Shown here: piece after piece, positions 1-39,729 of the stretch
Numbering within the stretch: the stretch's first letter is position 1
Layout: each line of letters opens with the position of its first letter
Virus record (IMG/VR): IMGVR_UViG_3300042269_000088
Reading direction: 5' to 3' (one strand)
Source of the DNA: a virus
DNA length: 39,729 bases
Notes under the pieces: generated by a model
Database searches by the model: none
Told to the model about the DNA's origin: nothing
The model's input: only the letters and a program-made list of their open reading frames with translations
Position numbers and translations under genes: made by a program

Positions 1-127
1 CGGGTTATCGTCGGAGTAGTTGACCTCAACGGAACCATCCAGGTCATTCCAGAACGGCAGCTCTGCAATTTTGCCGGGGGCGTTAGCCAGAGTGTCAAGC
101 ATGCCGTTACGGGTAACGATACCAGAC
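1..127. repeat. Terminal direct repeat identical to 39603..39729 (contig-closure overlap of a circular or circularly permuted genome)
   Basis: Compared base by base: first 127 nt = last 127 nt. The capsid ORF reads straight through the junction. Confidence 0.95.
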
Positions 128-4637: not shown

Positions 4638-5886
4638 CAAATCCAATATTGATGTCCATGACTGGTTTTCGTATGGGCATCTCATATGCTATCGGGTAGG
4701 TGCTGGCATCATTCTGGTGATCGTTGCCGCTTGACTTATCAGGTTCGCCGTTCGTGTCGTATGTTTGCTGCTCAAAACAGGCAGCTACGTCTGGGCACCT
4801 TTCGTCATTGACAAACAATCTGCCATTTTCAAATGCGGCATTCGTGGAGGATATCCTATCTTTTACCGGAGGGTTCTGCGGTTTAAACCGGCACTCAAAA
4901 CCGAATTCCTGCCGCAAAATTGCGATGTCGGACTCTGCAGCCCCACCCATACGGGTTCTGTTTTTGCCGGAACTGTCTGGGTACACAATTATTTTGCTGC
5001 TCGGATATCTGTCCTTCAATACCTGAGCCACTGCGGGAGTATTATAACCATCTTTAATTTGATCCACCGCATGAAATGCTTTGTCACGCATAACATAAAC
5101 AGTTGCAGCCATTTTGTCGATGTTAAAGTCCATGCCAACGAAGATTGGCTCACCGAACTTCACCACTTCCTTGCTCCTGTGTTTTGCGCGGTCATAACTG
5201 CGGTACACGGTCCCAGAAGTCAGGTTCACAAACTGACCTTCTAAGTAAGCACTTATTAACTGTTGAGGGTACGTCTCGATTAAAGATGGTATGTAATCAG
5301 GCGGCAAAAATTCCTCGTTTTCGTAGGTACTTGCCTGTACCATTGAATAACTGGAGGTCGGGTCTTTCGCAAACTGATGATACACAAATTTGAAACCCTC
5401 TGGTGTTGTTGTGACACCAATGGAGTTTTCAACACCAGGAATCACCAAACGCATTCGAGCAATGATTTTGTTCCAAGCATCTTGCGCCTTTTGACGCTTC
5501 AGCACATCTATTTCATCAACAAGTGCTCTGCTGATTTTGAAACCCACTATAGATGCGGGGTTGTCCATTGAGCGGCATATGACGGTGCCATAATAAACAT
5601 TACCGCGATAAATACCAACCTCCTTGTCGCCAGATTTAATCACGGTCCGGAAGCCCATCATTTCCGCAGCTTCACTGAAGGTTGGATAGAAAATGTCGCG
5701 TATGGCCGGGTATGTTGGTCCGAAATATCCCTGCACCGTTCCTGGATGCTTACAGCAGAATATCAATAGGTCCAGACACCCAATAAAGGTTTTCCCGGAC
5801 CCGAAACCACCAACATACGCTCGGTATTTGGTGTTGAGTCCGCTAAGGAATACACTCTGTGGGTTACTTAACCTCAGGTCGGCCAT
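4630..5886 (-). CDS. terL: Terminase large subunit
   Basis: Walker A VGGFGSGKTF. 418 aa. Overlaps the terS 3' end. Upstream of the portal. Confidence 0.85.
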   Translation of the reverse strand: MADLRLSNPQSVFLSGLNTKYRAYVGGFGSGKTFIGCLDLLIFCCKHPGTVQGYFGPTYPAIRDIFYPTFSEAAEMMGFRTVIKSGDKEVGIYRGNVYYGTVICRSMDNPASIVGFKISRALVDEIDVLKRQKAQDAWNKIIARMRLVIPGVENSIGVTTTPEGFKFVYHQFAKDPTSSYSMVQASTYENEEFLPPDYIPSLIETYPQQLISAYLEGQFVNLTSGTVYRSYDRAKHRSKEVVKFGEPIFVGMDFNIDKMAATVYVMRDKAFHAVDQIKDGYNTPAVAQVLKDRYPSSKIIVYPDSSGKNRTRMGGAAESDIAILRQEFGFECRFKPQNPPVKDRISSTNAAFENGRLFVNDERCPDVAACFEQQTYDTNGEPDKSSGNDHQNDASTYPIAYEMPIRKPVMDINIGFVV

Positions 5887-6367: not shown

Positions 6368-6420
6368 CACAGACAGGCTCCACACCATGACAAGTGTTGG
6401 TTGCTTCGTAGCGTTACTTT

Positions 6421-6456
6421 TTTATAAACCGGAAAAAATTGTCAACGACAGACAGT
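6421..6456 (-). promoter_or_regulatory. Operator/promoter-like module, copy 1 (inside the 47-bp perfect inverted-repeat core; one half-site degenerate, GACAGT)
   Basis: Reverse complement of 6408..6454 equals 21167..21213. Confidence 0.5.
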
Positions 6457-6467
6457 TTTTTTAGGCC

Positions 6468-6577
6468 ATTCTACAACTGCAACAATTCTACAACACTATC
6501 AGAAACACCGTAAAACGGGAACTTTTATGTAGAATGAACTGTAGAACACGAAAAAACATCAACACTACAATTCTACA
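6468..6577. repeat. Iteron array: 5 copies of ATTCTACA / TGTAGAA(T/C)
   Basis: Copies at 6468, 6485 and 6570 (forward), and at 6528 and 6540 (reverse). Confidence 0.8.
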
Positions 6578-6595
6578 TGGTGTTGCCCTTCAGAA

Positions 6596-6631
6596 ATTGT
6601 CATTCTTTGACAATTTTTCCAAGTCTATAAA
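6596..6631 (+). promoter_or_regulatory. Operator/promoter-like module, copy 3
   Basis: attgtcattctttgacaatttttccaagtctataaa. Confidence 0.5.
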
Positions 6632-6704
6632 AAAGTTAACGAGAAGAAGGAAAGGAAAGGCCATTTTCTTGGCCTCTGTGCCGAATAGCTATGCTAGTGG
6701 GGAT

Positions 6705-6744
6705 TAATATAAAGAGAGCCAAGGAAGACGCCTTCTCTTGGCTC
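6705..6744 (-). terminator. Terminator closing the replication module
   Basis: 12-bp stem with one bulge, GAGCCAAGaGAAG-gcgt-CTTCCTTGGCTC, followed by tctttatatt. Confidence 0.7.
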
Positions 6745-6766
6745 GGAAAGGTGTCTGTGGTGCGGG

Positions 6767-9789: not shown

Positions 9790-10302
9790 CTATTTCAGCA
9801 CTTTATCCAATGTAGTCGGGTCATCAGACAAGAGACTGTCTAAAAGAGCCAGGGCATCTTCGTCTTTTATCTTCACTGCTATACTGGCCATCACTTGCTC
9901 TGCATGAATACCGATACCGTATTTCTTCAGGAAGTACACAGCATCAACCAAATCAGCCAACTTGATTACTTCCTTATATTCTGGGTTGCTTTCCTTTATC
10001 GGTGCACCAAGATACTTCATCCGATGTTCTACGGGGTCACTGTAATTGATAGCCTCTTTGAGGACTGTAGGCATATCTCCCGTGAGTGCTTCCCCAAGAT
10101 CATGGTATAGTGCCGATATCATTACTTCCTGCCAAGGAAGACCCTTTTTCTGCGCCAGAAACCCCGCCAGAAGGGCCACGTTAAAGGAATGTTCAGCTAC
10201 GGATTGGTTCTTAACGAAATCTACGATATGCCACCGGGTGACATGGGTGTTACGCAGCACATCCTGCGGTGTCAGGTTTATTGGGAGGTGTAAGTAAGCC
10301 AT
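9790..10302 (-). CDS. datZ: HD-domain phosphohydrolase, DatZ-like (predicted dATP triphosphohydrolase)
   Basis: AEHS...YHDLGEALTGDMP (H..HD..E..TGD, YfbR-like). 170 aa. TAATG coupling to mazZ. Confidence 0.7.
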   Translation of the reverse strand: MAYLHLPINLTPQDVLRNTHVTRWHIVDFVKNQSVAEHSFNVALLAGFLAQKKGLPWQEVMISALYHDLGEALTGDMPTVLKEAINYSDPVEHRMKYLGAPIKESNPEYKEVIKLADLVDAVYFLKKYGIGIHAEQVMASIAVKIKDEDALALLDSLLSDDPTTLDKVLK

Positions 10303-11003
10303 TATTTATGCCTCATGATGCCAGTCTGTGGGTCAACAGCCCATGTCCGGTTTTCATTGATTTCCATTTTGTCGTGCACGGCTTGGAGTGCATCAATGCC
10401 GCGCATTTGGGCAATATCAAACAACAATATCAAGGTGTCGGCGTATTCGCCGGGGTCATCCAAGCCACCATTCAGGAGTTCTGGAATTTCCTCCAGCATC
10501 AATTTTGCTAGTGCCCCGTGGGGTGTTCTGCCGGGGTACACTCGGTCTGCCCATGACTTGATTCTTTCTTGCGCCGCCGCAATTGGGTCCGAACCACATT
10601 TGCGCATTTCTTGCAGATCCAGTATCTCTTCTTCACCCGACTCGGTGAAAATGCTTCCAATTCCTTTTCTTCCTTGCACTTCAAGCAAGTCTTTTTTATA
10701 ACGTCGGTCATCAAAACCCCCAAAATTATTGTGTGTGTAGTGATGAAGAAACATCATACAGCAGGTGGCATGTGCCAGGTGGCTGCGATTAGTCTCGGCA
10801 TCGATCTCTTCACCACATTCAAAAGCCGAGATGTGTCGCTTGGCAGCGTCGATTACGCGTGAATATTCAATACCATTCATCCAGTTGGGACCGCCGTATT
10901 TATCTTCACCGTACCCCAGCACATGCGCCACGTCCTCTAGGAAGGAAGGGTCAATAAGACCCAACCTCGGTTTCCCAGAGTCAAATTTGACTCCCTTGCT
11001 CAT
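10302..11003 (-). CDS. mazZ: Two-domain (d)NTP pyrophosphohydrolase, MazZ / DUF550-like
   Basis: N-terminal FDSGKPRL...DKYGGPNW domain plus a C-terminal MazG-like EEIPELL...EYADTLILLFDIA...NENRTW. ATGA coupling to purZ. Confidence 0.65.
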   Translation of the reverse strand: MSKGVKFDSGKPRLGLIDPSFLEDVAHVLGYGEDKYGGPNWMNGIEYSRVIDAAKRHISAFECGEEIDAETNRSHLAHATCCMMFLHHYTHNNFGGFDDRRYKKDLLEVQGRKGIGSIFTESGEEEILDLQEMRKCGSDPIAAAQERIKSWADRVYPGRTPHGALAKLMLEEIPELLNGGLDDPGEYADTLILLFDIAQMRGIDALQAVHDKMEINENRTWAVDPQTGIMRHK

Positions 11004-12058
11004 AGTTCCCTCACGTTATCAGAGGTGGGGCCAAAACCTAAGTATTTAACACCACCACAGCCCACATTGTTTGCCACATTGTTGATCACGGAAACGATAA
11101 AAGCCGAATGTTGCTCATCACGGCAGTAATTTACGAAGTTCAGGAATACCTCGTCTGGCTGCACGGCACGTAGGGCATCCTCGGTCTGTTTCCGTGAGAA
11201 TGTGAAAATGCGTCGCGGCAATTGCGTCACTGTGGTCAATTCCACCGGCTGGCCCAAGTCGTTGAAGGTGATTTCCTTCTGGTCACTGTAGCACGGCCCC
11301 GACCAGCCGATCATCTCACCATCTTTATTGAACCGGTTTGCAACACGAATTGGGTAGGTACGCATTGTGCCAACGATCTTAGTTAGCCAGCGCATCGGAA
11401 CGCCCGCATCCACCATTATTTGTGCCGGTGTGCACTCACGCGACGTGGTATACGGGTAGAAACCAGAATTTATGCCGAGAGAATAGCCTTGTGCTCCCTC
11501 GACCAAAACGTTCTCTGACCGGTCCAGCGCCTTGTTGTAATTCTCGGATGTGGCCGTGCTGATATCAATATTCAGACGGTCGGAAAATGCCAACACTTCG
11601 TTGGTGAAGTCACGGGCCGTAATCACAGACTCCGGGTTTCGACGGATTTTCTCGATCATAGCGGCACCACAGCCTTTTTTGGTGGAACCGATGGCCGTCA
11701 TCGAGCCTCCTTCCTCCAGAATGTGGCGCTCCTGAATCACACACGCATTTTCATGGATGATGATCTGAACACCCTGCAGCAGGTCTTGGCATTCCTCAAT
11801 TTCAGCAAAAAGGCGATCAAGACCGATCTGTGAGCCAGGGCCAATCAACACCTGCCGAAGATTTGGTGACACAATGCCATTGGCCAACATACAGTGAACG
11901 AATTTGCGGCCATCGCGGTTAATGTAGGTGTGTCCGGCATTCATACTCCAAGCCGTAACCACCGTGTCCGGCTTGTCACGCTCTGCCAGATACCCCGCAA
12001 TCAAACCCTTGCCGGTTGATCCAAACTGGAGATCACAAACAACCGTTACCTGTCTCAT
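11000..12058 (-). CDS. purZ: PurZ-like N6-succino-2-amino-2'-deoxyadenylate synthase (truncated PurA homologue)
   Basis: 352 aa. P-loop FGSTGKGL (PurA has GDEGKGK). IGSTKKGCGAA, VEGAQGYSL..YPYTTS, MRTYPIRV and TTVTQLPRR align with PurA landmarks. Confidence 0.85.
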   Translation of the reverse strand: MRQVTVVCDLQFGSTGKGLIAGYLAERDKPDTVVTAWSMNAGHTYINRDGRKFVHCMLANGIVSPNLRQVLIGPGSQIGLDRLFAEIEECQDLLQGVQIIIHENACVIQERHILEEGGSMTAIGSTKKGCGAAMIEKIRRNPESVITARDFTNEVLAFSDRLNIDISTATSENYNKALDRSENVLVEGAQGYSLGINSGFYPYTTSRECTPAQIMVDAGVPMRWLTKIVGTMRTYPIRVANRFNKDGEMIGWSGPCYSDQKEITFNDLGQPVELTTVTQLPRRIFTFSRKQTEDALRAVQPDEVFLNFVNYCRDEQHSAFIVSVINNVANNVGCGGVKYLGFGPTSDNVREL

Positions 12059-12910: not shown

Positions 12911-14749
12911 TCATGTGATTGTCGGTGCCAAGGTTGCATCCCACCAGTTGGACGAAGGTTCTGAAAAATCTATCCGCAGTGGCACCCTGATTTCGGGTCT
13001 GTTCTGAACCAAAGCCTTAATTTCCTTCATGTGCTTTTCAGCACCACCAAATGGTATGGAAATCGAATACTCGTCATGAATATTCAACAACAACTTGGCG
13101 TCTGGACATTCGGACGCCAAATACTTTGATATGCGAATAATATTGCTTTTGTTCAAATCCCCCGCAGTACCCTGATATACCAGCCCAGACGCTTTGTGCG
13201 TGAATTGTCCACCCGGAAACCGTATGTGCCTGCCCATCAGGGTTTTAACATAACCCCTGGACTTGGCGATTGCCCTTGCCTTTTGTGCAATCTCCTTAAC
13301 ACCCGGAACCATAGAGTAATACTGGTCGATGATAGCTTGGGCTTCCTTCCCGGCTTTTTTGATTTCCCTAAGCTCACCACCAAGCTCAACCTCTTCGACG
13401 GTATATGGCAACCCCATCTGCGCTGCCAGTTCACCGCCGCCCATATTAAACACCATGCCCAAGTTCATCTGTTTTGCATTAGCGCCTCCCGATTGGGGTG
13501 CGTTTCGCGGCAGTCCTGTAAGCTCGGCAATAGCTGCATGTCCATCAAGGTCGGGGTTTTTTGCATAGGCCGACACAATGTTGCCGTTGTTCACATAATG
13601 ATGGAAAATCCTCAACTCGTGCTGATCCAAGTCGCCGTATGTCCAACCCATGTCCTCGTCGGGGAGAAATATCGGGCGAACCACAGACGCCACATCTTTG
13701 TCCCGAGACGGTATTTGCTGCAATGCCGGTCTGGTATAGGACAATCGACCAGTGCCTGTTCCTCCCATCCCATCACTTTTGGTCTGGTTGATGTTCGGGT
13801 GCACCCTCCCGTTTTTCTCGTGCCCCAAGATGTGCCCGCCGATGAATGTGTCGCGGGTCTTCATCATTTTCCTTACTTTTAGGATTAGTGCAGCTGCGGG
13901 GTGCTTCATTGAGCGCAGAACATCCGCACCAATGGATGGTTTACCGGCAGGTGTGGTCGGCAAAATGGTCCCATCACATGCTACCCACACACCGGACTTG
14001 TTCTGCTTCGGTTCGAACAACTTCATAATCGAACCGGACGGATTGGGGTTGACCTCAAACCCCGCCACCTCATTTAGCCGTTTTTGATTCAAGTCGATGG
14101 TGGAAGTTAGTGAAGACATCTGGATTTCTGCCTTGTCATGGTCTATCCGGATACCATGCCGTTCCATTCGGAATACATGTGGGAACAGTTCCCTTTCCAA
14201 ATTCCACACGTCGTGCAACTGCTGGCGCTCAATCTCTTTTTCCTGCCACAAATACAATTCCAGGGCTATTTCGGCATCGACCTTGGCATAAGGTTCCACC
14301 AGTGATGGCGGTGCCCTGTGCAGATTTGGCATTTGTGCGTTTCGTGTTACCCTTCCACCAAACAATGCCGCCAACTTCTCGTAAATGTCATCAACTTTGT
14401 TTTTGCCAAGGTATTTCTTAGCCAGGGAATCCAAGCTGTAACTGTGGAGGTGTTCATTTATCAAAGCCGCCCTGATCATGGTATCTTCACACTGTTCAGG
14501 TTCCAATAGCACACCATCGTTCTTCAACATGTGAAGATCAAACTTCATGTTGTGATTCACAACCTTCTTGAACTCGGTGCTCAGAAGCTTTTTGTATTTT
14601 CCGGGTTCCCTGCGGATATCAAAATATTCAGACTTGATTTGACCATTTTCTACCCATGCTATGGCCACACCGAAAATTTTGTCCTCTAACCAGTTAACGC
14701 CTGTGGTTTCAACGTCAATGCACACCAAGTCAGAAAGTTCCCAACTCAT
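12911..14749 (-). CDS. dpoZ: Family-A DNA polymerase with 3'-5' exonuclease, DpoZ-like
   Basis: Exo I CIDVETTG. Pol motif A DLDQHELRI. Motif B NAKQMNLGMVFNMG. Motif C NIHDEY. 612 aa. Same strand as purZ and 850 bp away from it. Confidence 0.8.
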   Translation of the reverse strand: MSWELSDLVCIDVETTGVNWLEDKIFGVAIAWVENGQIKSEYFDIRREPGKYKKLLSTEFKKVVNHNMKFDLHMLKNDGVLLEPEQCEDTMIRAALINEHLHSYSLDSLAKKYLGKNKVDDIYEKLAALFGGRVTRNAQMPNLHRAPPSLVEPYAKVDAEIALELYLWQEKEIERQQLHDVWNLERELFPHVFRMERHGIRIDHDKAEIQMSSLTSTIDLNQKRLNEVAGFEVNPNPSGSIMKLFEPKQNKSGVWVACDGTILPTTPAGKPSIGADVLRSMKHPAAALILKVRKMMKTRDTFIGGHILGHEKNGRVHPNINQTKSDGMGGTGTGRLSYTRPALQQIPSRDKDVASVVRPIFLPDEDMGWTYGDLDQHELRIFHHYVNNGNIVSAYAKNPDLDGHAAIAELTGLPRNAPQSGGANAKQMNLGMVFNMGGGELAAQMGLPYTVEEVELGGELREIKKAGKEAQAIIDQYYSMVPGVKEIAQKARAIAKSRGYVKTLMGRHIRFPGGQFTHKASGLVYQGTAGDLNKSNIIRISKYLASECPDAKLLLNIHDEYSISIPFGGAEKHMKEIKALVQNRPEIRVPLRIDFSEPSSNWWDATLAPTIT

Positions 14750-16164
14750 ATCAGTTCCCTCAAAGGATTTGACCCCATAACAATGTCCAAACGCTCCTTG
14801 GCCCTGGTTACGGCAACGTAAAATGTGCGGATCTCGGAATCGCGTTCTTTCGATTCATATGTTCTTTGTCCCATACCATTAACCAAGATAATTCTGTTTG
14901 CCTCTTTACCCTTGGATGCATGGATGGTACATATTCTAACATCTGTAGATTTCGGTAGGCAACCGTGGGATTCAAAAATCCTCTTCAGGTATGAAATGAG
15001 GTCGGGCTTGAGGTCCAGTACCTGTTCCCAACTCTTCTTGATTTCCACCCTTCTTTTTACCTTGTCCCTATAAACCGGTTTCACAGCCCGTTCCAGGGCA
15101 TTCCACTCCTTGTCGCTGAGCATATCCAGCCCGGTATTGGCCATATTCTGCTGGTATTTACACCAAACGCGAACGGCATTGGCTTGCCTAGATGACAAAG
15201 GTGCTGGCTTTCCGCCGTCAGCCGTATATGCTACACCCCGCGACACCAACCATTCTTCTATGTCCTCCCTTATAGAGTGATTACGCACCAATATCATAGT
15301 TTCACCAGTTGGGGTGTCAACCATCCTGATGTCCCCATATCTGTTAATTACACCCTTGTCAGCTTTCGGGCGGTACTCTTTTTCCACTCGGTCTGACACA
15401 TTTGATATAAGGTCGGTAGCGAGGTCGTGGACCGAGGATGGTATGCGGAAGGACTGGTCGAGGACGACCCTTTTGGCACCATGTCTGATCTCGAAATCGG
15501 GCATACCCGACGGGTCTGCACCATTCCACTTGTATATGGACTGGTCATCATCACCGGCAATAATTATTTCCTTCAGGAATGGAATCCACGATTCCACCAG
15601 ACGCCACTGCTGTGGCGTGAGATCTTGGGCCTCATCTACCACCAAAATGTCTACTTCTGGGTCTTCACCAACGGCCAGATCCAACATGTCCGAGAAGTCC
15701 ACAACGCCATAAGCTTTCTTGAATGACTCATACGACTCAACAAAATAAATGAATTCGTGCAGTGCACCAACCTCTGGACACTCCATGAAAACACCTTTAT
15801 AATTCGTTGTCAGCTTGGCCCTGGCCAATGAATATAATGACATATATGCCTGTCCCTTGGTCATTTCCGTAATTTCATAGGAATTTACAGAACTGAACTG
15901 TATGCCAATAACCTTGGTCAACTCCCGGAGCCATGAATCGTTTATCACCCGCTCCTTCGACAGTCCTGCCAGTCTATAACCATATGAGTGCAGTGTGGAA
16001 ATTTCTCTTCCAGCCGGTATACCACACCGATCAGCAATCTCTTTTGCCGCCGCTTTTGTAAATGACACTACACCGACTCTTTCCTGTTGATAGGACTTGA
16101 CCCTATTAACCAAATAGGTAGTTTTGCCCGTACCCGGAGGACCGTAAATAACTTCTGCTTTCAT
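14746..16164 (-). CDS. SF1 (UvrD/RecD/Dda-like) DNA helicase
   Basis: Walker A GPPGTGKTT, Walker B VVDEAQD, C-terminal TIHASKGKEA. ATGA overlap with dpoZ. Confidence 0.8.
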   Translation of the reverse strand: MKAEVIYGPPGTGKTTYLVNRVKSYQQERVGVVSFTKAAAKEIADRCGIPAGREISTLHSYGYRLAGLSKERVINDSWLRELTKVIGIQFSSVNSYEITEMTKGQAYMSLYSLARAKLTTNYKGVFMECPEVGALHEFIYFVESYESFKKAYGVVDFSDMLDLAVGEDPEVDILVVDEAQDLTPQQWRLVESWIPFLKEIIIAGDDDQSIYKWNGADPSGMPDFEIRHGAKRVVLDQSFRIPSSVHDLATDLISNVSDRVEKEYRPKADKGVINRYGDIRMVDTPTGETMILVRNHSIREDIEEWLVSRGVAYTADGGKPAPLSSRQANAVRVWCKYQQNMANTGLDMLSDKEWNALERAVKPVYRDKVKRRVEIKKSWEQVLDLKPDLISYLKRIFESHGCLPKSTDVRICTIHASKGKEANRIILVNGMGQRTYESKERDSEIRTFYVAVTRAKERLDIVMGSNPLRELI

Positions 16165-16175
16165 TCTATCACCTA

Positions 16176-16199
16176 TAAAAAAGGCGGGTTTCCCCGCCT
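16176..16199 (-). terminator. Rho-independent terminator
   Basis: Reverse complement: AGGCGGG-gaaa-CCCGCCT-tttttt. Confidence 0.8.
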
Positions 16200-16204
16200 C
16201 AATT

Positions 16205-16930
16205 TTACATCTCGCTGTCGTCTTCCGTAACTTCAGTACTGCGGTCCACTGCAGCTCCTCCGGATTTCACCATGTCGTAAATTTGCTCGGCATGCTTGAA
16301 CACCTGCTCTGTTACAAAGCCGACATTCTTCACGGACAGATTGTAGAAATCCTGGCCAGCCTTGTTCTGGTCGGCAACACCAGAAATCTTGTACACACGT
16401 GAGAATCGCGGCCCACCATTGATTCGAACCAGGCTATTCCAGTTACGGCTCACACGGGACTTGGTTTTTGCCATGGATATGACGGCTTCTTCAACAGAAC
16501 CATCCTCCTTCAGTACCAGCACGAAATGCTGATTGGTGTCCACAACTTCCCACTCATGTGGCACTTCTTGTGTCTGTCGGGCCTCTTCAGCACTAGCACC
16601 ATCTGGGAACGCACCACCGAAACCACCTCCGAGCTTGGTGTCACGCCACAGAAGGTATTCCTTGCGGAAGAACACCGGAACCACATTAATTAACTCGCCG
16701 TACAGCTCACGGGTGACATTATTGTACAGCATGCCCTCTTGAGCACCATCAATGTATGCGGGGTCTGTCTTCTTCCGGCATGCGGACAGGGACTGAACCA
16801 ATTCAATTCGAGGAATCACCAAATCATCAGAACCGACCTCTTCAGATCCACGATTATCCTGCATCTTTTCCTGTAGGAATGCTGGCATTGTTTCATTCAT
16901 ATTCACATTTGACACTTCATTCTTAGCCAT
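16205..16930 (-). CDS. Hypothetical replication/recombination-module protein (241 aa, acidic C-terminus)
   Basis: ATG at 16930 with AAGGTGG SD. Followed by a strong terminator. Function not recognised. Confidence 0.7.
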   Translation of the reverse strand: MAKNEVSNVNMNETMPAFLQEKMQDNRGSEEVGSDDLVIPRIELVQSLSACRKKTDPAYIDGAQEGMLYNNVTRELYGELINVVPVFFRKEYLLWRDTKLGGGFGGAFPDGASAEEARQTQEVPHEWEVVDTNQHFVLVLKEDGSVEEAVISMAKTKSRVSRNWNSLVRINGGPRFSRVYKISGVADQNKAGQDFYNLSVKNVGFVTEQVFKHAEQIYDMVKSGGAAVDRSTEVTEDDSEM

Positions 16931-16946
16931 CTTATCCACCTTTCTA

Positions 16947-17432
16947 CTAACGCTTGGTTATTGTTGCACGTGAAAACGGAGTTACTTGATAAACATCTTC
17001 TGGGATTTCAATGCCATCCCGGAGCATTCGACGAATTAGCGCCTTTAATGACGACGCATTTACCGTCTCGGAGATAAGATCTTCATGACCATTTTCCGCC
17101 AGCCATTCGAAGCTTGCCTCCTTGTTGTTGATCTTCAGATAAATGTCCGAAGTCAACGACACCCTGCCAACACCCTGCACAGTGATGGACTCTACACCTT
17201 CTTCGTCCATCTTCATGGGCACTGCATGAGTGCGGACGTAATCATAAACCTTACCAACGGCAGATTTATGGCTGTCCAGTTTTTCATGCAATTCCTTGAT
17301 GTCGGCCTGGAATTGTGCCAACTGCACCAAATCCAGACTATCAAAATCCAGGGATTCTGTGTTGAACCCCTCTACCGCAGAACCAAGACTTTCCTCGGCC
17401 AGGCTTATTGCCTTGACGAATGCATCTATCAT
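16947..17432 (-). CDS. Hypothetical protein (161 aa; possibly Gp157-like)
   Basis: N-terminal coiled coil. Abuts the upstream stop codon. Family call is weak. Confidence 0.6.
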   Translation of the reverse strand: MIDAFVKAISLAEESLGSAVEGFNTESLDFDSLDLVQLAQFQADIKELHEKLDSHKSAVGKVYDYVRTHAVPMKMDEEGVESITVQGVGRVSLTSDIYLKINNKEASFEWLAENGHEDLISETVNASSLKALIRRMLRDGIEIPEDVYQVTPFSRATITKR

Positions 17433-17747
17433 CTATCGGATCTCCATTTCTATGGGTCGGTACCTACCGCCAATTTTGTCCCATAGCAGGACATTAACAA
17501 CATCACATCTCTCGGCGGCTTTGTGGAACGCATACCCGATCACAGCGGGGTTTCCCGTCAGCACCAAATAATCATCCTCACCAAACTGCTCAAGCGTGGA
17601 GTCAATTCGGGTCATGATCGACTCATTAATCAATGAACCCCGAATCGGCTTAATCTCATCGCGAGTAATGAAATTCACCTCACCAAACCGCTCAGCATCG
17701 GAATAATCAATGTAATTATTCTCCTGAACCACCCAAACTTTGTTCAT
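17433..17747 (-). CDS. Hypothetical protein (104 aa)
   Basis: First gene after promoter 17772..17800. AGGAGAATAGA leader. Confidence 0.65.
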   Translation of the reverse strand: MNKVWVVQENNYIDYSDAERFGEVNFITRDEIKPIRGSLINESIMTRIDSTLEQFGEDDYLVLTGNPAVIGYAFHKAAERCDVVNVLLWDKIGGRYRPIEMEIR

Positions 17748-17771
17748 TCTATTCTCCTATCCAATAAGGAA

Positions 17772-17800
17772 ATTGTATCACACCGTGGGGCTTCGGTCAA
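17772..17800 (-). promoter_or_regulatory. Sigma70-like promoter P6 (TTGACC-17-TACAAT)
   Basis: Reverse complement: ttgaccgaagccccacggtgtgatacaat. Confidence 0.65.
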
Positions 17801-19444
17801 CTATAATTTTGAACGGACATATTCGGCAACGTCCATCTTGCTCCTGAGAATATTCATGATGTGTGCATCCTTTGACCCCTCCGCCACTATGTCCACGTAT
17901 AACACATTTTTATCCTGACCAATACGGTGGCACCGGTCCTCGGATTGCATTCTGTCGGACAACTTAAGTGAGTTGCTGTAGTAAATAACCAGGTTAGCGT
18001 TATTTAAAGTAAGACCAGTGCCGCCGGTCTGCTGGTTGGCAACGAATACCTTGGCGGGTCCAGACGTGAATCTTTTCAAACTTTCCTCCCGTTCATCCGA
18101 AGACAAACCACCGTGGTACTCCACACACTCGATGCCCGAAGACTTCAGCGCCTCCACGATATCTGCGATTTCCCGCCTGAATTTTGCCCACACTATGACA
18201 TCACCACCCACATTCTGCCTCACCAATTCCAGCAGTTCCATAATCTTGGGGTTTTTGTCCGGTTGGACTATCACGGAAGTTTTGCGGCCATCATCGGTGT
18301 CATGGTTGATAAAACCTCCGGATATCTGTTGCAGCATCGTATATTTGGCCAGCACCTGATCCACAAACACCTTGACACTCTCAGTGCCATTGTGGATCAT
18401 GGACTCCATTTCCTTATCTATTTCCTTATAAAACTTCTTTTGTTCCTTTGTCATTGAAACTGTTCGGACGCTATAGGTCTTCTCCGGTAGGTCCAAAACG
18501 TCTTCCTTCTTACATTGGAAGGTGAACGGCTTGATGGTATCCATCAACTCATCCTGGTTCTGATACCCAATTACTTCCCTGTTCTCATAGCCGCCCATAA
18601 TTGCGTATCTGGATTTGAACGCGAAATAACTACCAAACCCCAGGATGTTCGGGTCCAATATGTCAAAGGGCATGTACAAATCCAAAAGTCCCTGAGTTAC
18701 GGGGGAGCCGGTCATGATATTCGCAACCACAGCGCATGATGCGATGTGCTTGATATTCCTGGCCCTGTTTGCATCTGGGTTTTTACACAGGTGCGATTCA
18801 TCCAAGGTAACGGCATATCTCTCCCCGCCTATGATATCAAGCATGGCATCATAGGCACTGCCGCCTTTATACTTTGATGACATGCTTTCTATGCCGACAA
18901 TGACAACCTTCAACTTTTTGTCTGGGGCTTTCACTTTCCTGCCGGATTGAATGACAACCACACCAACATCTAGTGGGCAGTGGATTTCTATTTCGCGCAT
19001 CCAGTTAAAACGTATTGAATTCGGGCAGAACACCACCCAAGTATCAAATCTACCCGCCAAAATATGTGCGGACATCAGATCTATGGCAGTTTTGGTCTTG
19101 CCAGTGCCCATCTCCATGAAGAATGCGTGCCGGTCTAAACCATAAGCGTAATTGAGTGCCTGCATCTGATGCAAAAATGGTTTAGTCTTAAACTTGTAAT
19201 CCTTCGGGAACGGTATGTATTGCACCTGCTTTAATTGGACAACCTGTTCCGCCACTACAAGAGCTTTTTCGTCCATGTATCTGCGGAGATGTTCCAGCAT
19301 GAACTCACATGCTTTCCTGACCTTCGGAACCGCCCACTTCCTAGACCTTGAATTAAACCGCTTCATTGGCAGTGCCGCAATCAACTGGTTCTCTTCAAAG
19401 CCGCATTCTATCACGAATTTGTTGCGCTCTAATGTGATTTTCAT
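17801..19444 (-). CDS. SNF2-family (SF2) helicase / translocase
   Basis: MEMGTGKT (motif I), LDESH (motif II), TGGTGLTL and QSEDRCHRIGQ (motifs V/VI). Confidence 0.85.
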   Translation of the reverse strand: MKITLERNKFVIECGFEENQLIAALPMKRFNSRSRKWAVPKVRKACEFMLEHLRRYMDEKALVVAEQVVQLKQVQYIPFPKDYKFKTKPFLHQMQALNYAYGLDRHAFFMEMGTGKTKTAIDLMSAHILAGRFDTWVVFCPNSIRFNWMREIEIHCPLDVGVVVIQSGRKVKAPDKKLKVVIVGIESMSSKYKGGSAYDAMLDIIGGERYAVTLDESHLCKNPDANRARNIKHIASCAVVANIMTGSPVTQGLLDLYMPFDILDPNILGFGSYFAFKSRYAIMGGYENREVIGYQNQDELMDTIKPFTFQCKKEDVLDLPEKTYSVRTVSMTKEQKKFYKEIDKEMESMIHNGTESVKVFVDQVLAKYTMLQQISGGFINHDTDDGRKTSVIVQPDKNPKIMELLELVRQNVGGDVIVWAKFRREIADIVEALKSSGIECVEYHGGLSSDEREESLKRFTSGPAKVFVANQQTGGTGLTLNNANLVIYYSNSLKLSDRMQSEDRCHRIGQDKNVLYVDIVAEGSKDAHIMNILRSKMDVAEYVRSKL

Positions 19445-20979
19445 AACTCAGGCTCCACACGTACCGGCTCCAGGTCAATCACATCCCCGTCATTTAGGGG
19501 TGCGAACCACACTGATATTACCGATGACTCAACCCTCAGCTTGGCATGCTCAACGCCAACCTTCCTAAGTGCCATCCACAAGTTAGAACCTTTCAACTCC
19601 TCCGACCTGTTCTTCTTGAGGAAGTCAATGAAATCGGAACCCCTGAAGTATACTACGCGCTTTCCATCCACCTTTTGCACGACTGGTGATCCGAGCAACA
19701 ATGCTCTGCGCTCTGTTATGTCTTCACCACCGGATGACAAATCAGCCCGCCCGAAGAATTCAAACAGTCGCTCGCGAATAAAGCCGTATGCGGACGCCTC
19801 CTCCGGTGCCTCCAAAATGATTGCCTTCTCCATCAGGCTACACAATGTGGCTTCCCATTTGTCGTTTTTCATTGGGGCGATGATTTTTGTCAGATTGTCA
19901 GCAACAGCACGACGAACAGCTTTATAATCCATCAATTCATGTGTGGCCAGGGTGACGGGTGTATCATCTACATATAAAACCCACCTGACGGGTTCGGTAG
20001 TGTACTTTTCAAGCTTCCCGAATTCTGGCGGTTTACCAAGCTCTAGTTCACCCTTCTCTTCCGGTGTAATCCCAAATTTGCGCTTAACACACAAAGAACT
20101 GTTACATAAAGACCTGCACGGTTCTTCCTTGCATTTGTACCGGTACTCCCGGCGGCTGGCACTGGTGATGGTTCGTTTCGCCTCACTGTGGACCAGCGGT
20201 TTTTCAAAAATTCTGGCATTTGCATCGAATGCCCTATCCTTCCATGTTTCTGGGAATGCCTTTTTGAAATATATCACCAGGTTATATAGGGCTTCATTCC
20301 TGTGGCCCCTACCAACACCATCAACCAACATCCTCTGGATACACGGTGGTGCTTCTCCGTGCTCCCCGTCGGTCTTTTCTATTAGAATAGCTGGTTTTAC
20401 CCTTCTGGATTCAGCAAGGCTAAGGAAATAGGCAAAGGGGACCTTCTGGCCACCCTCGAAGCAATACCTGAGTTCATTTGGGCTGTCAGCATCAAAACAG
20501 CACAGGTTGAGCCAATTTCCGAGCTGCCTCTCACCACCAGACTCCGGCAGGTTATCCTGCTTGGGGAAAATTTCGACCCCAGGATATCCAACAAGACCCG
20601 CCCACTTTGCCAGTGCTTGTCTTACCACCTTGGCCGGTGTGGGATCTGTCATGAACAGATAAAGATGTGCGCCGCCCGACTTAGATCTGCATATTGTTAG
20701 CGGTAGATCATTCTGCTTAACGGCCTTTTCAAGCTCCAACAAATCAATATCGGGACTGTCACCATGTGCATCAATATCAATGGCACCAAACCAGCAATTT
20801 CCATCATCCAATACGGGAACCACTCCCACACCTTCCTCCCCGGAAAGGTGTTTCTCGTATTGCTCGAACCCGATGGCACTCCTTTCAGTGTGCATCTTGC
20901 CAGTTTTCGGATTAAAGACACCATAAGACCTGGGGTTCCCGACAAACAAGCCGGAAAACCGCTCTATTTTCTCTTTCAT
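19441..20979 (-). CDS. Archaeo-eukaryotic-type primase (prim-pol fold) with C-terminal extension
   Basis: GAIDIDAH (DxD) and SKSGGAHLYLF (sGGxH) motifs. 512 aa. No P-loop seen. Confidence 0.65.
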   Translation of the reverse strand: MKEKIERFSGLFVGNPRSYGVFNPKTGKMHTERSAIGFEQYEKHLSGEEGVGVVPVLDDGNCWFGAIDIDAHGDSPDIDLLELEKAVKQNDLPLTICRSKSGGAHLYLFMTDPTPAKVVRQALAKWAGLVGYPGVEIFPKQDNLPESGGERQLGNWLNLCCFDADSPNELRYCFEGGQKVPFAYFLSLAESRRVKPAILIEKTDGEHGEAPPCIQRMLVDGVGRGHRNEALYNLVIYFKKAFPETWKDRAFDANARIFEKPLVHSEAKRTITSASRREYRYKCKEEPCRSLCNSSLCVKRKFGITPEEKGELELGKPPEFGKLEKYTTEPVRWVLYVDDTPVTLATHELMDYKAVRRAVADNLTKIIAPMKNDKWEATLCSLMEKAIILEAPEEASAYGFIRERLFEFFGRADLSSGGEDITERRALLLGSPVVQKVDGKRVVYFRGSDFIDFLKKNRSEELKGSNLWMALRKVGVEHAKLRVESSVISVWFAPLNDGDVIDLEPVRVEPEL

Positions 20980-27318: not shown

Positions 27319-27340
27319 AGCCCCATTACGGGGCTTTTTT
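27319..27340 (+). terminator. Rho-independent terminator of the plus-strand operon; overlaps the stop codon of the convergent gene
   Basis: AGCCCC-attac-GGGGCT-ttttt. Confidence 0.75.
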
Positions 27341-27697
27341 GTTCTTCCAGAACGACTCATCACCAGCATCTTTGACAGCCCTGTAGTATGTCATAGCGCG
27401 GTAACTGCGCAGCCATGTAAGCCAACCTCCGTGATTCTCTATGATTGCAATCAGGTTTGTCAGGAATAAATCGTCCGCAACATCCTTGTCTATCTCATCC
27501 TGCCCAAACTCATACATCCAGTCGTGGATCTGGCATGCGGCCTGAATATTCAAACCCCACATTGTCTCAGGCACAATCTTGTTCTTCCATCCCGACGGGC
27601 CGCATCCGTTGCAAACTTCGCCACGCCGAGGAGCAGATGCCTCCCAGTACGATGCAGGTGCTATCAACACGCCTTGCTTTGATAGATTGAATATCAT
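27326..27697 (-). CDS. PLA2-like / DUF1353-like protein, last gene of the lysis block
   Basis: GCGPSG loop followed 21 aa later by AACQIHDWMY (C-x2-H-D-x2-Y). ATGA coupling to the lipoprotein gene. Confidence 0.4.
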   Translation of the reverse strand: MIFNLSKQGVLIAPASYWEASAPRRGEVCNGCGPSGWKNKIVPETMWGLNIQAACQIHDWMYEFGQDEIDKDVADDLFLTNLIAIIENHGGWLTWLRSYRAMTYYRAVKDAGDESFWKNKKAP

Positions 27698-27969
27698 TTG
27701 TCGTCATCTCCTATTGCGTCTAGCACATCAGTACACAGTCCAGCAGCCGGATAACCTGGCACCGCTGCGCGAATAAGGTTCAGCAGCACTGCACGCGCCA
27801 CCGGGTCAGATTCAGTACAGTAACGGTGCTGGAGCGTTAATACCTGCACCGTACCATCAACTGCGGATCCGGATAGGTCGCCGAGCTGATACCCATCCTG
27901 CATACGAGGCATCGAGCATCCAGCCAGCGTGGCCGCAAATGTTACCGCCATCACTATTCGTTTGATCAT
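27694..27969 (-). CDS. Lipoprotein (possible outer-membrane lysis component)
   Basis: Signal peptide plus lipobox: MIKRIVMAVTFAATLAGC. ATGA overlaps on both sides. Confidence 0.65.
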   Translation of the reverse strand: MIKRIVMAVTFAATLAGCSMPRMQDGYQLGDLSGSAVDGTVQVLTLQHRYCTESDPVARAVLLNLIRAAVPGYPAAGLCTDVLDAIGDDDK

Positions 27970-28439
27970 TTTACGCCCTCCAGTGTCGTTTCAATCACCC
28001 GCCGTGTCCAGCCGCGACCGTATCGGCCCCACCCCTTCAGCGCGGCGTAGTATGCGATGCGTTCGGCAGCATAGCGTACAGCGATCTCATCGGGCTTAGC
28101 GCTGTTGACCGCTGCGAGCGTGACGGGTCCGATAACGCCGTCATCTGTGACGCGCACAACGCGTTGTAGTAGGCGGATTGCTGTACGGTTGCCTGCATTA
28201 ACGGCCATGTCAAATACTGCGACAGCAACCGGCTCTGGCATTTCATCAGCTCGGATTGCATCCCAATAATCGCGTCGGTATATCTGCTTTGCGTCATCGC
28301 GGGTTAGCTCCTTGATGTTGAGATCGGGGTAAGCACGCTTGCTTATGCCGTAATTGGTTTCGCCGCCAGCATCGTGCGGGTCATTCACATACCCTCCCTC
28401 GTGCTTCAGGATTAACTCAACTGCCGTGTCAAACGTCAT
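27966..28439 (-). CDS. Endolysin, GH108-like with C-terminal peptidoglycan-binding domain
   Basis: ILKHEGGYVNDPHDAGGETNYGI signature. 157 aa. Confidence 0.8.
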   Translation of the reverse strand: MTFDTAVELILKHEGGYVNDPHDAGGETNYGISKRAYPDLNIKELTRDDAKQIYRRDYWDAIRADEMPEPVAVAVFDMAVNAGNRTAIRLLQRVVRVTDDGVIGPVTLAAVNSAKPDEIAVRYAAERIAYYAALKGWGRYGRGWTRRVIETTLEGVK

Positions 28440-28738
28440 TTATCCATCCTCTTATTGACCACCTTTCGCGCCACTTCGCGCACGTAGTCTGTGCCAAGGT
28501 GTCCGATCATTGCACCGACCAGCGTTGCTGTGCCGTGGCCGACTCCAAACTCAGCAAGACTGAGCGCAACCGCTGTTGCGATACAGCCAGCTGCTGGAAC
28601 CTCAATCGCCAGGCGCTGCCACTTTTTAGAATGAGCATCGCCCAAAATACGCAAAGCAGACAGCACTGCTGCCATAATACTTGACCCCCATACGCCAGCC
28701 GGTACTGACTCAAGCAGCGATTTGATGTTGTCCGGCAT
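28436..28738 (-). CDS. Holin (multi-TMD)
   Basis: 100 aa with 2-3 hydrophobic segments and a charged C-terminus KVVNKRMDK. Directly upstream of the endolysin. Confidence 0.65.
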   Translation of the reverse strand: MPDNIKSLLESVPAGVWGSSIMAAVLSALRILGDAHSKKWQRLAIEVPAAGCIATAVALSLAEFGVGHGTATLVGAMIGHLGTDYVREVARKVVNKRMDK

Positions 28739-28775: not shown

Positions 28776-28784
28776 ATTATATCA
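28776..28784 (-). promoter_or_regulatory. Extended -10 promoter (TGATATAAT) upstream of the lysis block
   Basis: Overlaps the stop codon of the upstream gene. 37 nt upstream of the holin ATG. Confidence 0.45.
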
Positions 28785-29234
28785 GTTATCAGGCCAGACG
28801 ATTAGCTCAGGCTCATCTGATTCAGCGAGCTGGGCAAGAAGTCCAGCATACACGCCGAAAAGCTCCATCTTGCGTAGCGGATACTGACTGATAACAGCCT
28901 GCAAATCCGCAGCCGTCAACGTCTGGATTGTGTTATCAGCCATAATCCAATCTGTGGATTCCACGTTAGATGCCGCCCACTGGACGTTTTCGCGGTCTTC
29001 TGGTGTAGCCACTTGCACGTTATTGATCGGTGCGGATACACGCTCGATGCGTTCCATCTTGAGCATCTGACGCTGGCGTTCGCGGCGTTGCTCTAGCGTA
29101 AGCTCAGGCGCGGTATATTGCGGCACAATCAAAAACTCCGGCAGTCTGTCAGCGTGAAAACTCATGCCGAGTTCGTTTTGCCAGTCGCGGTGGCTTTTGA
29201 TTTCGCCGGTTTCGGTGTGTTTATATCGGTTCAT
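28782..29234 (-). CDS. Tail-fibre assembly / DUF4376-like protein
   Basis: Position after the tail-tip genes. C-terminal W.MADNT...LTAADLQAV pattern. Confidence 0.4.
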   Translation of the reverse strand: MNRYKHTETGEIKSHRDWQNELGMSFHADRLPEFLIVPQYTAPELTLEQRRERQRQMLKMERIERVSAPINNVQVATPEDRENVQWAASNVESTDWIMADNTIQTLTAADLQAVISQYPLRKMELFGVYAGLLAQLAESDEPELIVWPDN

Positions 29235-38810: not shown

Positions 38811-39729
38811 TCAGTTGGTGATAAGGAAGCTCATCGGCACCAACTTACGATCCAGCACGCGGTCGAAGCTGGTGGCTAGCGCCAGCTCGGTGTTGGTGAA
38901 GGACTCACCAGCCGGAGTGCCGGTAGCCTGGAAGCCAAACGGGTGCAGAATCCAAGTATTGCGAACCCACAGGGTCTCAATACCACCGCCGTTGCCCTGA
39001 GCTGCTTCACGATCAACCTCAACCGGGGTTTCCGGTGCGCCCACGCCGTAGCCAAATGCACCAGAGCCAAAAATGACAGAGGTGTATTTGAAGCCGTCGG
39101 TTGTGCCAGCGGTAACGGTCATGCCGTCATCAACAATCACATGCAGACCCATGTAAGTCGGGATAGTCAGGCGACCCTGAGAATCCGGGATATACACGAT
39201 GTCGTCATTCTTGACCATCTGCGCCATAATGGCCGAGTGGACAGCAATTGCGCTCAGGCTGGTTGCGGCGTCACCCATGGTGTAAACAGCCTCAGTGAAC
39301 ACATCGCGGTTGAACTTGGTGTCTGCGGTCTGAGATGCAACAGCCTCAGCGGCAACATCTACAGTCATATCGCCGGAGTCGTTCGCCACGTTGTCGGCGA
39401 GAATGCCGTTAGCAGACGCAACCAGGCGGCGCTGCCACTGACGGGAAAAGTAGCGGTCAACCTTGGCGCGGATAGCATCCATTGCAGTACCGCCCATAGC
39501 CAGCTCGGACGCCAGATCAGCAGCCTGCCAGCCCTGGTTCACAAACGCCTTGCGGGCAATCTGCTCACCCTGAACGATCTTCTGCGGGGTGGCAGAGTTG
39601 GTCGGGTTATCGTCGGAGTAGTTGACCTCAACGGAACCATCCAGGTCATTCCAGAACGGCAGCTCTGCAATTTTGCCGGGGGCGTTAGCCAGAGTGTCAA
39701 GCATGCCGTTACGGGTAACGATACCAGAC
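38811..39729 (-). CDS. Major capsid protein, main part (continues at 219..128 through the junction)
   Basis: In frame across the 127-bp overlap. Followed by a strong terminator. Confidence 0.85.
   Translation of the reverse strand, partial: SGIVTRNGMLDTLANAPGKIAELPFWNDLDGSVEVNYSDDNPTNSATPQKIVQGEQIARKAFVNQGWQAADLASELAMGGTAMDAIRAKVDRYFSRQWQRRLVASANGILADNVANDSGDMTVDVAAEAVASQTADTKFNRDVFTEAVYTMGDAATSLSAIAVHSAIMAQMVKNDDIVYIPDSQGRLTIPTYMGLHVIVDDGMTVTAGTTDGFKYTSVIFGSGAFGYGVGAPETPVEVDREAAQGNGGGIETLWVRNTWILHPFGFQATGTPAGESFTNTELALATSFDRVLDRKLVPMSFLITN
39603..39729. repeat. Second copy of the 127-bp terminal overlap
   Basis: Identical to 1..127. Confidence 0.95.

Follow-up and report, generated by a model that had tools for sequence, protein, structure and literature searches.

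A conserved lipoprotein and phospholipase A2-like gene pair at the end of a lysis cassette in an uncultured siphovirus

The IMG/VR virus record IMGVR_UViG_3300042269_000088 (39,729 nucleotides; here called the window, meaning the whole stretch of DNA that was analysed) encodes on its minus strand a lysis block that ends in the gene of a 91-amino-acid lipoprotein (27694..27969) and the overlapping gene of a 123-amino-acid protein resembling phospholipase A2 (PLA2; 27326..27697). The block is a holin-endolysin lysis cassette of which the last two genes are a conserved module, and this lipoprotein and PLA2-like lysis module is real and appears to be undescribed. An initial annotation of the window had proposed that the last step of lysis, disruption of the outer membrane, is enzymatic, lipoprotein-mediated or both instead of being mediated by spanins; the recurrent pairing of lipoprotein and enzyme, which is the strongest result of the present analysis, was not part of that proposal.

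The lipoprotein and its partner genes

The 91-amino-acid open reading frame (ORF) encodes an outer-membrane-type lipoprotein, with the signal sequence MIKRIVMAVTFAATLAG directly before the lipobox cysteine (lipobox LAGC, Cys18; PF08139, E=0.007) and Ser at position +2. Its homologues form 17 clusters of 63-86% identity with 30 invariant columns, including two further cysteines (C51 and C79), and the AlphaFold (AF2) model of the protein, with a predicted local distance difference test score (pLDDT) of 59, suggests a helical core at low confidence. No match to the lipoprotein was found among the PHROGs, Rz1-type families included, or by tblastn against cultured phages, and NCBIfam yielded nothing further for either the lipoprotein or the PLA2-like ORF. 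The module with this lipoprotein family has so far been seen in uncultured phages only.

A scan of IMG/VR with the lipoprotein alignment yielded 17 loci, in 16 of which a gene of the DUF1353 superfamily directly follows or overlaps the lipoprotein gene, and such a gene is also found directly 3' of the lipoprotein gene in every context retrieved by exact protein look-up. The homologues are located in otherwise unrelated lysis cassettes with different endolysins (GH108, PF11860 muramidase or SLT). The cassette of P2-like myoviruses consists of gpX, holin_8, holin_3_7, PF11860 muramidase, the lipoprotein, a protein of 141-144 amino acids and gpR, with the pair between endolysin and gpR in the position of lysB/lysC. 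A second type of cassette has the order SLT endolysin, LydA-type holin, lipoprotein, 134-amino-acid protein and terS, and a third has the order SLT, a 134-amino-acid coiled-coil protein with a C-terminal transmembrane domain (TMD), lipoprotein, a bona fide DUF1353 protein (E=1e-29) and terS. Proteins of about 100-140 amino acids that combine a long coiled coil at the N-terminus with a C-terminal TMD were noted repeatedly directly upstream of the lipoprotein/DUF1353 pair (contigs L119, 1526-1930; L143/L144; L021, 4455-4769), in several cassettes that have no other obvious holin, and these have a weak XhlA-like match (E=0.09).

The association is also evident among 64 other non-redundant loci of the enzyme family, where lipoproteins are encoded by 18 of the 119 ORFs adjoining PLA2-like genes and by 4 of the 701 non-adjacent ORFs (odds ratio 31, p=1e-12). 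These lipoproteins belong to several unrelated families, and their junctions with the enzyme genes often overlap by 4 or 8 nucleotides. Together, the loci support the view that a lipoprotein gene and a PLA2-like gene constitute a conserved unit of two genes, located in the spanin slot of several lysis cassettes that are not related to one another.

The partner proteins of 134-144 amino acids carry the landmarks GPSG...HDALY...FL...YRAV. When the P2-type partner family (A5) was aligned with the family of the window's protein by hhalign (42% probability, E=2.6e-4), the GPSG, HDxxY, FL and YxAVxxxG landmarks coincided, which is only suggestive of homology. Within the P2-type subfamily (contigs L116, L121 and L125), the HD is kept and the position aligned to D75 of the window's protein is an invariant Asn, so that from its sequence this branch may be catalytically altered or inactive.

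The PLA2-like family

The 123-amino-acid protein contains the motifs GCGPSG (residues 31-36) and AACQIHDWMY (residues 53-62), separated by 16 residues and not by the 21 counted in the initial annotation. Its family comprises 2191 representatives at E<=1e-3 in a library clustered at 50%, nearly all of 110-150 amino acids. Among 159 homologues, G33, H58 and D59 are invariant, N81 is present in 158 and D75 in 153, and C32, C55, Y62 and D75 are conserved at 94-96%; because of this conservation, the GCGPSG and HD motifs are judged not to be chance occurrences. H58, D59 and D75 align with the catalytic H64, D65 and D85 of the Streptomyces enzyme SvPLA2 (1FAZ) and with H70, D71 and D85 of TtaP, a DUF1353 protein of the typhoid-toxin islet. 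H58/D59 are the predicted catalytic residues, D75 the predicted dyad aspartate and G31-C32-G33 the putative Ca loop. C32 and C55 covary perfectly, both being present in 150 of the 159 homologues, neither in the other 9, and never one alone. This covariation is the signature of a disulfide, which in turn suggests that the enzyme acts outside the cytoplasm despite having no signal peptide. No signal peptide or hydrophobic N-terminus was found in the 123-amino-acid protein or in most of its relatives; a few relatives carry N-terminal hydrophobic extensions.

The profile search and structure prediction that had been proposed as checks of the PLA2 assignment both point to the same group of enzymes. 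Family profiles compared with Protein Data Bank (PDB) structures matched the group XIII/XIV secreted PLA2s 1FAZ (E=7e-7), 4AUP, 7YGK and 8K1W. The AF2 model (pLDDT 77) has the all-helical catalytic core fold of group XIV PLA2, and its top five PDB matches by Foldseek are 7YGK, 4AUP (two chains), 8K1W and 1FAZ (probability 0.92-1.0, root-mean-square deviation 2.6-3.5 A over about 75 residues). Searched against a viral library, the model matched phage proteins named phospholipase A2 and, weakly, the PLA2 domains of densovirus VP1. The initial annotation had likened the motifs to those of secreted, bee-venom and parvoviral PLA2s; the PLA2 assignment stood, but the closest fold relatives are the bacterial and fungal enzymes of groups XIII/XIV rather than the bee-venom enzyme, and the parvoviral domains match weakly.

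Three observations weigh against the assignment. Residues 33-39 of the Ca loop have pLDDT <50 in the AF2 model; the single sequence scores 18.8 bits against DUF1353 (PF07087), just below the gathering threshold of 22.5 bits and over residues 47-83 only; and it scores 13.8 bits (E=0.089) against Phospholip_A2_3 (PF09056), for which the gathering threshold is 29.4 bits. By these curated thresholds the protein belongs to neither family, and its sequence places it in a sister family in the same superfamily. Of 86 relatives, 38 match DUF1353 (best E=1.4e-5) and 21 match Phospholip_A2_3 at E<0.01, so judged by these matches the family sits between the two. Identification of the 123-amino-acid protein as PLA2-like, in a new subfamily of the PLA2/DUF1353 superfamily, is well supported by profile matches, predicted fold, conserved catalytic residues and the proven activity of a relative, TtaP.

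The protein shares with the secreted PLA2s of groups XIII/XIV (Streptomyces violaceoruber 1FAZ/1LWB, Tuber borchii 4AUP) a three-helix catalytic core and a conserved Cys before the catalytic His. It differs from them in that no N-terminal secretion signal or propeptide was found, in having one conserved, covarying Cys pair rather than two disulfides, and in its N-terminal third, the match being limited to residues ~41-111. It has the HD...D catalytic residues, small size and lack of signal peptide that characterize the DUF1353/TtaP class. TtaP itself has PLA2 activity that is abolished by D85A, degrades phosphatidylethanolamine and phosphatidylglycerol of E. coli, and is encoded beside the muramidase TtsA, described as similar to prophage muramidases (PMC11525133). 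The window's protein thus resembles TtaP, which is likewise small (about 125 amino acids), signal-less, distantly related to group XIV PLA2s, equipped with a His/Asp dyad and adjacent Asp, and genetically linked to a muramidase. The differences are that TtaP has no equivalent of the conserved Cys pair, that the window's protein has an N-terminal xCGxG loop where DUF1353 has a beta-rich N-terminus, and that its gene belongs to a genuine phage lysis cassette, next to that of a lipoprotein partner.

Spanins and the outer-membrane step of lysis

The first 127 nucleotides of the window (1-127) are identical to the last 127 (39603-39729), which shows that the window comprises a complete genome of about 39.6 kb, assembled as a circle. 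The relatives of its portal protein are without exception from phages of Proteobacteria, and the host is therefore very likely diderm. The initial annotation had seen no recognisable spanin pair in the lysis block and had left room for a canonical pair elsewhere; none was found in the complete genome by scans for lipoboxes, TMDs and spanin PHROGs. Searching all frames of the genome for an i-spanin (N-terminal TMD followed by a charged soluble, periplasmic domain) returned only out-of-frame or antisense ORFs with 9-29% charged residues. No TMD-bearing ORF overlaps the lipoprotein gene in other frames, and no spanin PHROG was matched by the about 45 window proteins scanned. The 91-amino-acid ORF is the sole credible lipoprotein in the genome according to a lipobox scan of every start in six frames, the other candidates being antisense to long genes. 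A 68-amino-acid ORF with an N-terminal hydrophobic segment within the holin gene (28507-28713) was rejected as an i-spanin, as it has a TTG start and low charge and is not kept in the related contig L007.

The earlier description of the lipoprotein as unlike typical o-spanins and u-spanins also holds. The combination of lipobox and C-terminal TMD that marks a unimolecular spanin was not found in it, its C-terminus (...DVLDAIGDDDK) being acidic with no hydrophobic segment. It has the lipobox and Ser+2 of an o-spanin, yet there is no i-spanin gene, no match to Rz1 or LysC families, and a mature protein of 74 amino acids. Like two-component spanins (lambda Rz/Rz1, P2 LysB/LysC) and the unimolecular T1 gp11, the pair comprises the last genes of the lysis cassette and includes an outer-membrane lipoprotein, and in the P2-like relatives it likewise stands between endolysin and gpR. 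It differs from spanins in that it lacks a coiled-coil subunit anchored in the inner membrane, an embedded or overlapped gene architecture and a C-terminal TMD on the lipoprotein, and in that its second component is a soluble enzyme-like protein. Because a defining feature of the spanins is lacking, the pair is not a member of the spanin families.

It is quite improbable that the lipoprotein is nonetheless an atypical o-spanin, working with an inner-membrane partner that is unrecognisable or host-encoded, or with the PLA2-like protein in a structural rather than enzymatic capacity. Its outer-membrane-type lipobox and conserved periplasmic Cys are found in many o-spanins and its position is the spanin slot; moreover, nested spanin genes have been overlooked before, as in LambdaSo (bioRxiv 10.1101/2024.01.23.576932). 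Opposed to this are the absence of a TMD-bearing partner in any frame of the complete genome, the absence of TMDs from the PLA2-like protein and from the A5-type and DUF1353-type proteins that replace it, and the dissimilarity to Rz1 and LysC families of a lipoprotein whose mature form has 74 residues and a helical core (predicted with low confidence) rather than being a short proline-rich peptide.

Non-spanin effectors were considered as well. Mycobacteriophage LysB, a mycolyl-arabinogalactan esterase that acts on the outermost lipid layer, and the disruptin gp28 of phiKT overcome the outermost barrier by means other than spanins and are encoded in or near lysis cassettes; LysB resembles the present case in being an enzymatic lipid esterase. 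LysB is an alpha/beta-hydrolase acting on a mycomembrane linkage and gp28 a cationic peptide, and neither has a PLA2 fold or a lipoprotein partner. To our knowledge, a cationic peptide is the only alternative to spanins that has been worked out. There is no space for a disruptin gene in the window's cassette, because all of its junctions overlap. The only small cationic ORF in the genome (57 amino acids, 6534-6707, net charge +10) is probably not a disruptin, as it has no Shine-Dalgarno sequence and lies in an AT-rich, repeat-bearing intergenic region; it is probably spurious. With no i-spanin or u-spanin in the genome, the lipoprotein and PLA2-like pair is the only visible candidate for the outer-membrane lysis step in this phage.

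The positions of related genes bear on how general such a role could be. In 181 records of cultured phages there are canonical DUF1353 genes, most of them labelled "tail assembly chaperone". Of 12 contexts sampled, 7 abut endolysin, holin or spanin genes (IME207, gmqsjt-1, Wellington, SPFM17, phiPMW, FNU1 and Funu2), tail-fibre genes are abutted in ZY21, RSF1, KIRK and again phiPMW, and 2 abut neither. In Pseudomonas phage ZY21 (L152, 1947-4312), where the DUF1353 gene comes after the tail-fibre gene, a large GDSL hydrolase (lipid/ester hydrolase) is encoded two genes later. As DUF1353 genes directly follow endolysin, holin and Rz/Rz1 genes (IME207, the records L130, L131, L150 and L154, and other cultured phages) and belong to the family of TtaP, a proven PLA2, the chaperone label looks like a misannotation propagated through phrog_1158. 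Phospholipase-type genes are thus common, unrecognised members of lysis cassettes, often alongside spanins.

Taken at face value, the label would make the 123-amino-acid protein a tail-fibre assembly chaperone or, in parallel with the PLA2 of parvoviral VP1, a virion-associated entry enzyme, which is the least probable of the readings considered here. A weak match of the ORF to phrog_1158 (E=5e-4), the tail-fibre neighbours in ZY21, RSF1, KIRK and phiPMW, the location of the window's lysis block after the tail-fibre and DUF4376 genes, and the distant fold matches to densovirus VP1 would agree with it. Against these, the label is a family name only, for which no experimental basis was found in the literature searched; the catalytic His/Asp/Asp and the disulfide pair are strictly conserved, which a chaperone would not need; and in the window the holin, endolysin and lipoprotein genes stand between the enzyme and the fibre genes. 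Lysis cassettes of siphoviruses commonly come after the tail genes, so the order of modules also counts against this reading.

Several observations weigh against the proposed role of the pair in lysis or limit the idea that it replaces spanins. Only about 12 of the 64 enzyme-family loci have a recognisable peptidoglycan hydrolase within three genes, others adjoin tail-fibre, sheath/tube or head genes, and most members of the family in IMG/VR are not beside a recognisable endolysin. The pair is located between terminase and head-completion genes in Vibrio phage 1.097.O, and in a Thiohalocapsa phage a member of the enzyme family is encoded 4 kb from an annotated Rz-like spanin. Salmonella phage IME207 (L127) has endolysin, holin, hypothetical protein, Rz with embedded Rz1, and then DUF1353 (3498-3839), and gmqsjt-1 has lysozyme, hypothetical protein, Rz-like DUF2514 and DUF1353. 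The authors of the TtaP study speculated on outer-membrane perturbation and found no phenotype, deletion of ttaP having left the envelope of S. Typhi without one (PMC11525133). In addition, the enzyme partner switches among three barely related subfamilies while the lipoprotein stays 59-86% identical, which argues against a tight and specific protein-protein interface; a lipoprotein that acts on some structure of the host, or on a feature common to these enzymes, fits better than a tight, co-evolving complex.

As DUF1353 genes co-occur with Rz/Rz1, the enzyme is not generally an alternative to spanins. It may instead be an accessory lysis enzyme, released at lysis to degrade membrane phospholipid and so to speed lysis, free virions from debris or destroy receptor-bearing vesicles; this we consider unlikely, but it is a serious alternative, and its corollary is that the outer-membrane step is dispensable for the host or habitat or is done by something not yet recognisable. 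Besides the cultured phages in which a DUF1353 gene comes straight after a complete Rz/Rz1 pair or an Rz-like DUF2514 gene, and the Thiohalocapsa phage with both a family member and an annotated spanin, an accessory role would suit phiPMW and Funu2, in which DUF1353 adjoins proteins with an N-terminal TMD and coiled coil. It would also suit the figure, given in a preprint, of about 15% for phages of Gram-negative hosts that have no recognisable spanins (bioRxiv 10.1101/515445). In the lipoprotein-bearing phages, however, the pair occupies the exact spanin slot with no i-spanin, and a heuristic scan of 19 lipoprotein-adjacent loci found an i-spanin-like ORF within four genes in 4 and none in 15.

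The variety of positions could also be that of a moron-type pair that has no part in lysis and is carried where the late operon ends, for example a superinfection-exclusion lipoprotein of Llp/Cor type with a PLA2-like toxin or defence effector. The genomic location of the pair, or of the enzyme by itself, varies widely and is often the end of a module; the enzyme is paired with lipoproteins of several unrelated families; and conservation of the lipoprotein is much higher than that of neighbouring phage genes, as would be expected of a protein that binds a host component. We regard this reading as improbable, since the pair is translationally coupled to the endolysin and all retrieved homologues of the lipoprotein family with readable flanks are inside lysis cassettes. 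Furthermore, the enzyme has no export signal and can reach its compartment only when the holin fires.

Organisation of the cassette and its possible mode of action

The initial annotation described four genes chained by three ATGA stop/start overlaps, and the ORFs and junctions of the minus-strand block (28436..28439, 27966..27969 and 27694..27697) are as it gave them. Purine-rich, Shine-Dalgarno-like runs (aagga, aagagga, ggaggg and aggag) precede all four starts. The first gene (28436..28738, minus strand) encodes a class I, lambda S-type holin of 100 amino acids with about three hydrophobic segments (PF05106, E=4.9e-13; phrog_126, E=3.2e-17; TIGR01594, E=7.7e-12). The second (27966..28439, minus strand) encodes a soluble GH108-type muramidase of 157 amino acids with a PG_binding_3 domain (PF05838, Glyco_hydro_108, E=2.4e-30; PF09374, E=8.7e-10), which also matches phrog_315 (E=4.8e-57) and NF040573 "holin-associated N-acetylmuramidase" (E=4.7e-27); no signal sequence or signal-anchor-release sequence was found in this endolysin. 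Directly upstream of the block, a DUF4376 tail-fibre-assembly-type gene (28782..29234, minus strand; PF14301, E=1.4e-10) forms the border between tail-fibre module and lysis block. At the other end, the terminator of a convergent plus-strand operon (27319..27335, plus strand; hairpin AGCCCCATTACGGGGCT followed by the T-run TTTTTGTTCT in a terminator scan) shares bases with the PLA2-like gene's stop codon and indicates where the minus-strand late operon ends.

PHROG scans identify the genome as that of a siphovirus, in which the late operon proceeds from terminase genes through portal, head, tail and tail-fibre genes and the DUF4376 gene to the lysis block at its end. The closest relative of the cassette, on contig L007 (enzyme 69% identical), has the order DUF4376, S-holin, 74-amino-acid transmembrane protein, GH108, a shorter lipoprotein and PLA2-like protein. 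The 74-amino-acid protein (5129-5353), between holin and endolysin, combines an N-terminal TMD with a Cys-rich DUF3761 domain and is not present in the window. The block gave no megablast match to cultured phages or E. coli genomes, and in a distant blastn the endolysin alone matched.

Elsewhere in the genome, a 2-aminoadenine (Z-genome) module (9790-12058, minus strand, with 12911-20979) encodes a DatZ-like dATP triphosphohydrolase (phrog_7076), a MazZ-like dATP/dGTP pyrophosphohydrolase (phrog_801) and PurZ (phrog_1211, E=2e-98), adjoined by the phage's own DNA polymerase, two helicases and a primase. A DNA methyltransferase gene (1955-2806, minus strand; phrog_116, E=3e-60) is inserted in the late operon, where the portal and head-morphogenesis genes flank it. 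Several copies of TTCTACA/TGTAGAA in both orientations are present in an AT-rich intergenic region (6389-6766) upstream of the small terminase gene, which may be a regulatory or packaging site.

A mode of action can be proposed for the pair in which the four proteins would be made late from one message, translationally coupled as the organisation of the block shows. The lipoprotein, with its lipobox and Ser+2, would be exported and directed to the outer membrane's inner leaflet, while the PLA2-like enzyme would wait in the reducing, low-calcium cytoplasm. The large holes of a lambda-S-type holin would then let the 17-kDa endolysin and the 14-kDa enzyme pass jointly into the periplasm, where the enzyme would form its C32-C55 disulfide, bind Ca2+ and hydrolyse the sn-2 acyl chains of envelope phospholipids. 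The resulting lysophospholipids and free fatty acids would destabilise the outer membrane, and the lipoprotein may be the partner of the enzyme there, in targeting, activation or local perturbation.

In function, such a pair is most closely matched by the colicin lysis proteins, small lipoproteins that permeabilise the envelope by activating the host outer-membrane phospholipase A (OMPLA, PldA; PMC4305986). The analogy is one of a small lipoprotein and a phospholipase A that together permeabilise a Gram-negative envelope and release macromolecules (PMC4305986). In the colicin system the phospholipase is a beta-barrel enzyme of the host and the lipoprotein has about 30 amino acids, whereas the phage codes for a soluble PLA2-like enzyme of its own and a lipoprotein of 74 amino acids in mature form, with no sequence similarity between the systems.

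That a holin-released envelope phospholipase works with its lipoprotein in lysis seems to us about evenly balanced between true and false. That the pair fully substitutes for a spanin in this phage, as a self-sufficient enzymatic module for disruption of the outer membrane, is plausible but doubtful. Thus, the PLA2 assignment, the lack of a spanin pair and the conserved pair in the spanin slot bear out part of the initial hypothesis, but replacement of spanins is not established, given DUF1353 genes beside Rz/Rz1. The initial annotation had also considered this an undescribed solution, and the literature searched contains no contrary report: in open-access papers and bioRxiv (full text), no paper was found that proposes a phage PLA2, or a lipoprotein and PLA2 pair, as a factor in lysis or outer-membrane disruption.

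Hundreds of phage genes labelled "tail assembly chaperone" (DUF1353) can be reread as probable lysis-cassette phospholipases. Small signal-less PLA2s that are harmless in the cytoplasm and active after holin triggering would be of use in programmed lysis and in the design of enzybiotics against Gram-negative bacteria. The pair also suggests what the unexplained role of TtaP in the export of typhoid toxin might be, in that the same logic, if true, would account for the keeping of this PLA2 by the phage-type muramidase TtsA in the typhoid-toxin islet. The module is a concrete candidate, amenable to testing, for passage through the outer membrane by hydrolysis of lipids; if the proposal is true, it would be a phage-encoded counterpart of the colicin-lysis-lipoprotein/OMPLA system and would add to spanins and cationic disruptins a third class of effector for outer-membrane lysis in phages of Gram-negative bacteria.

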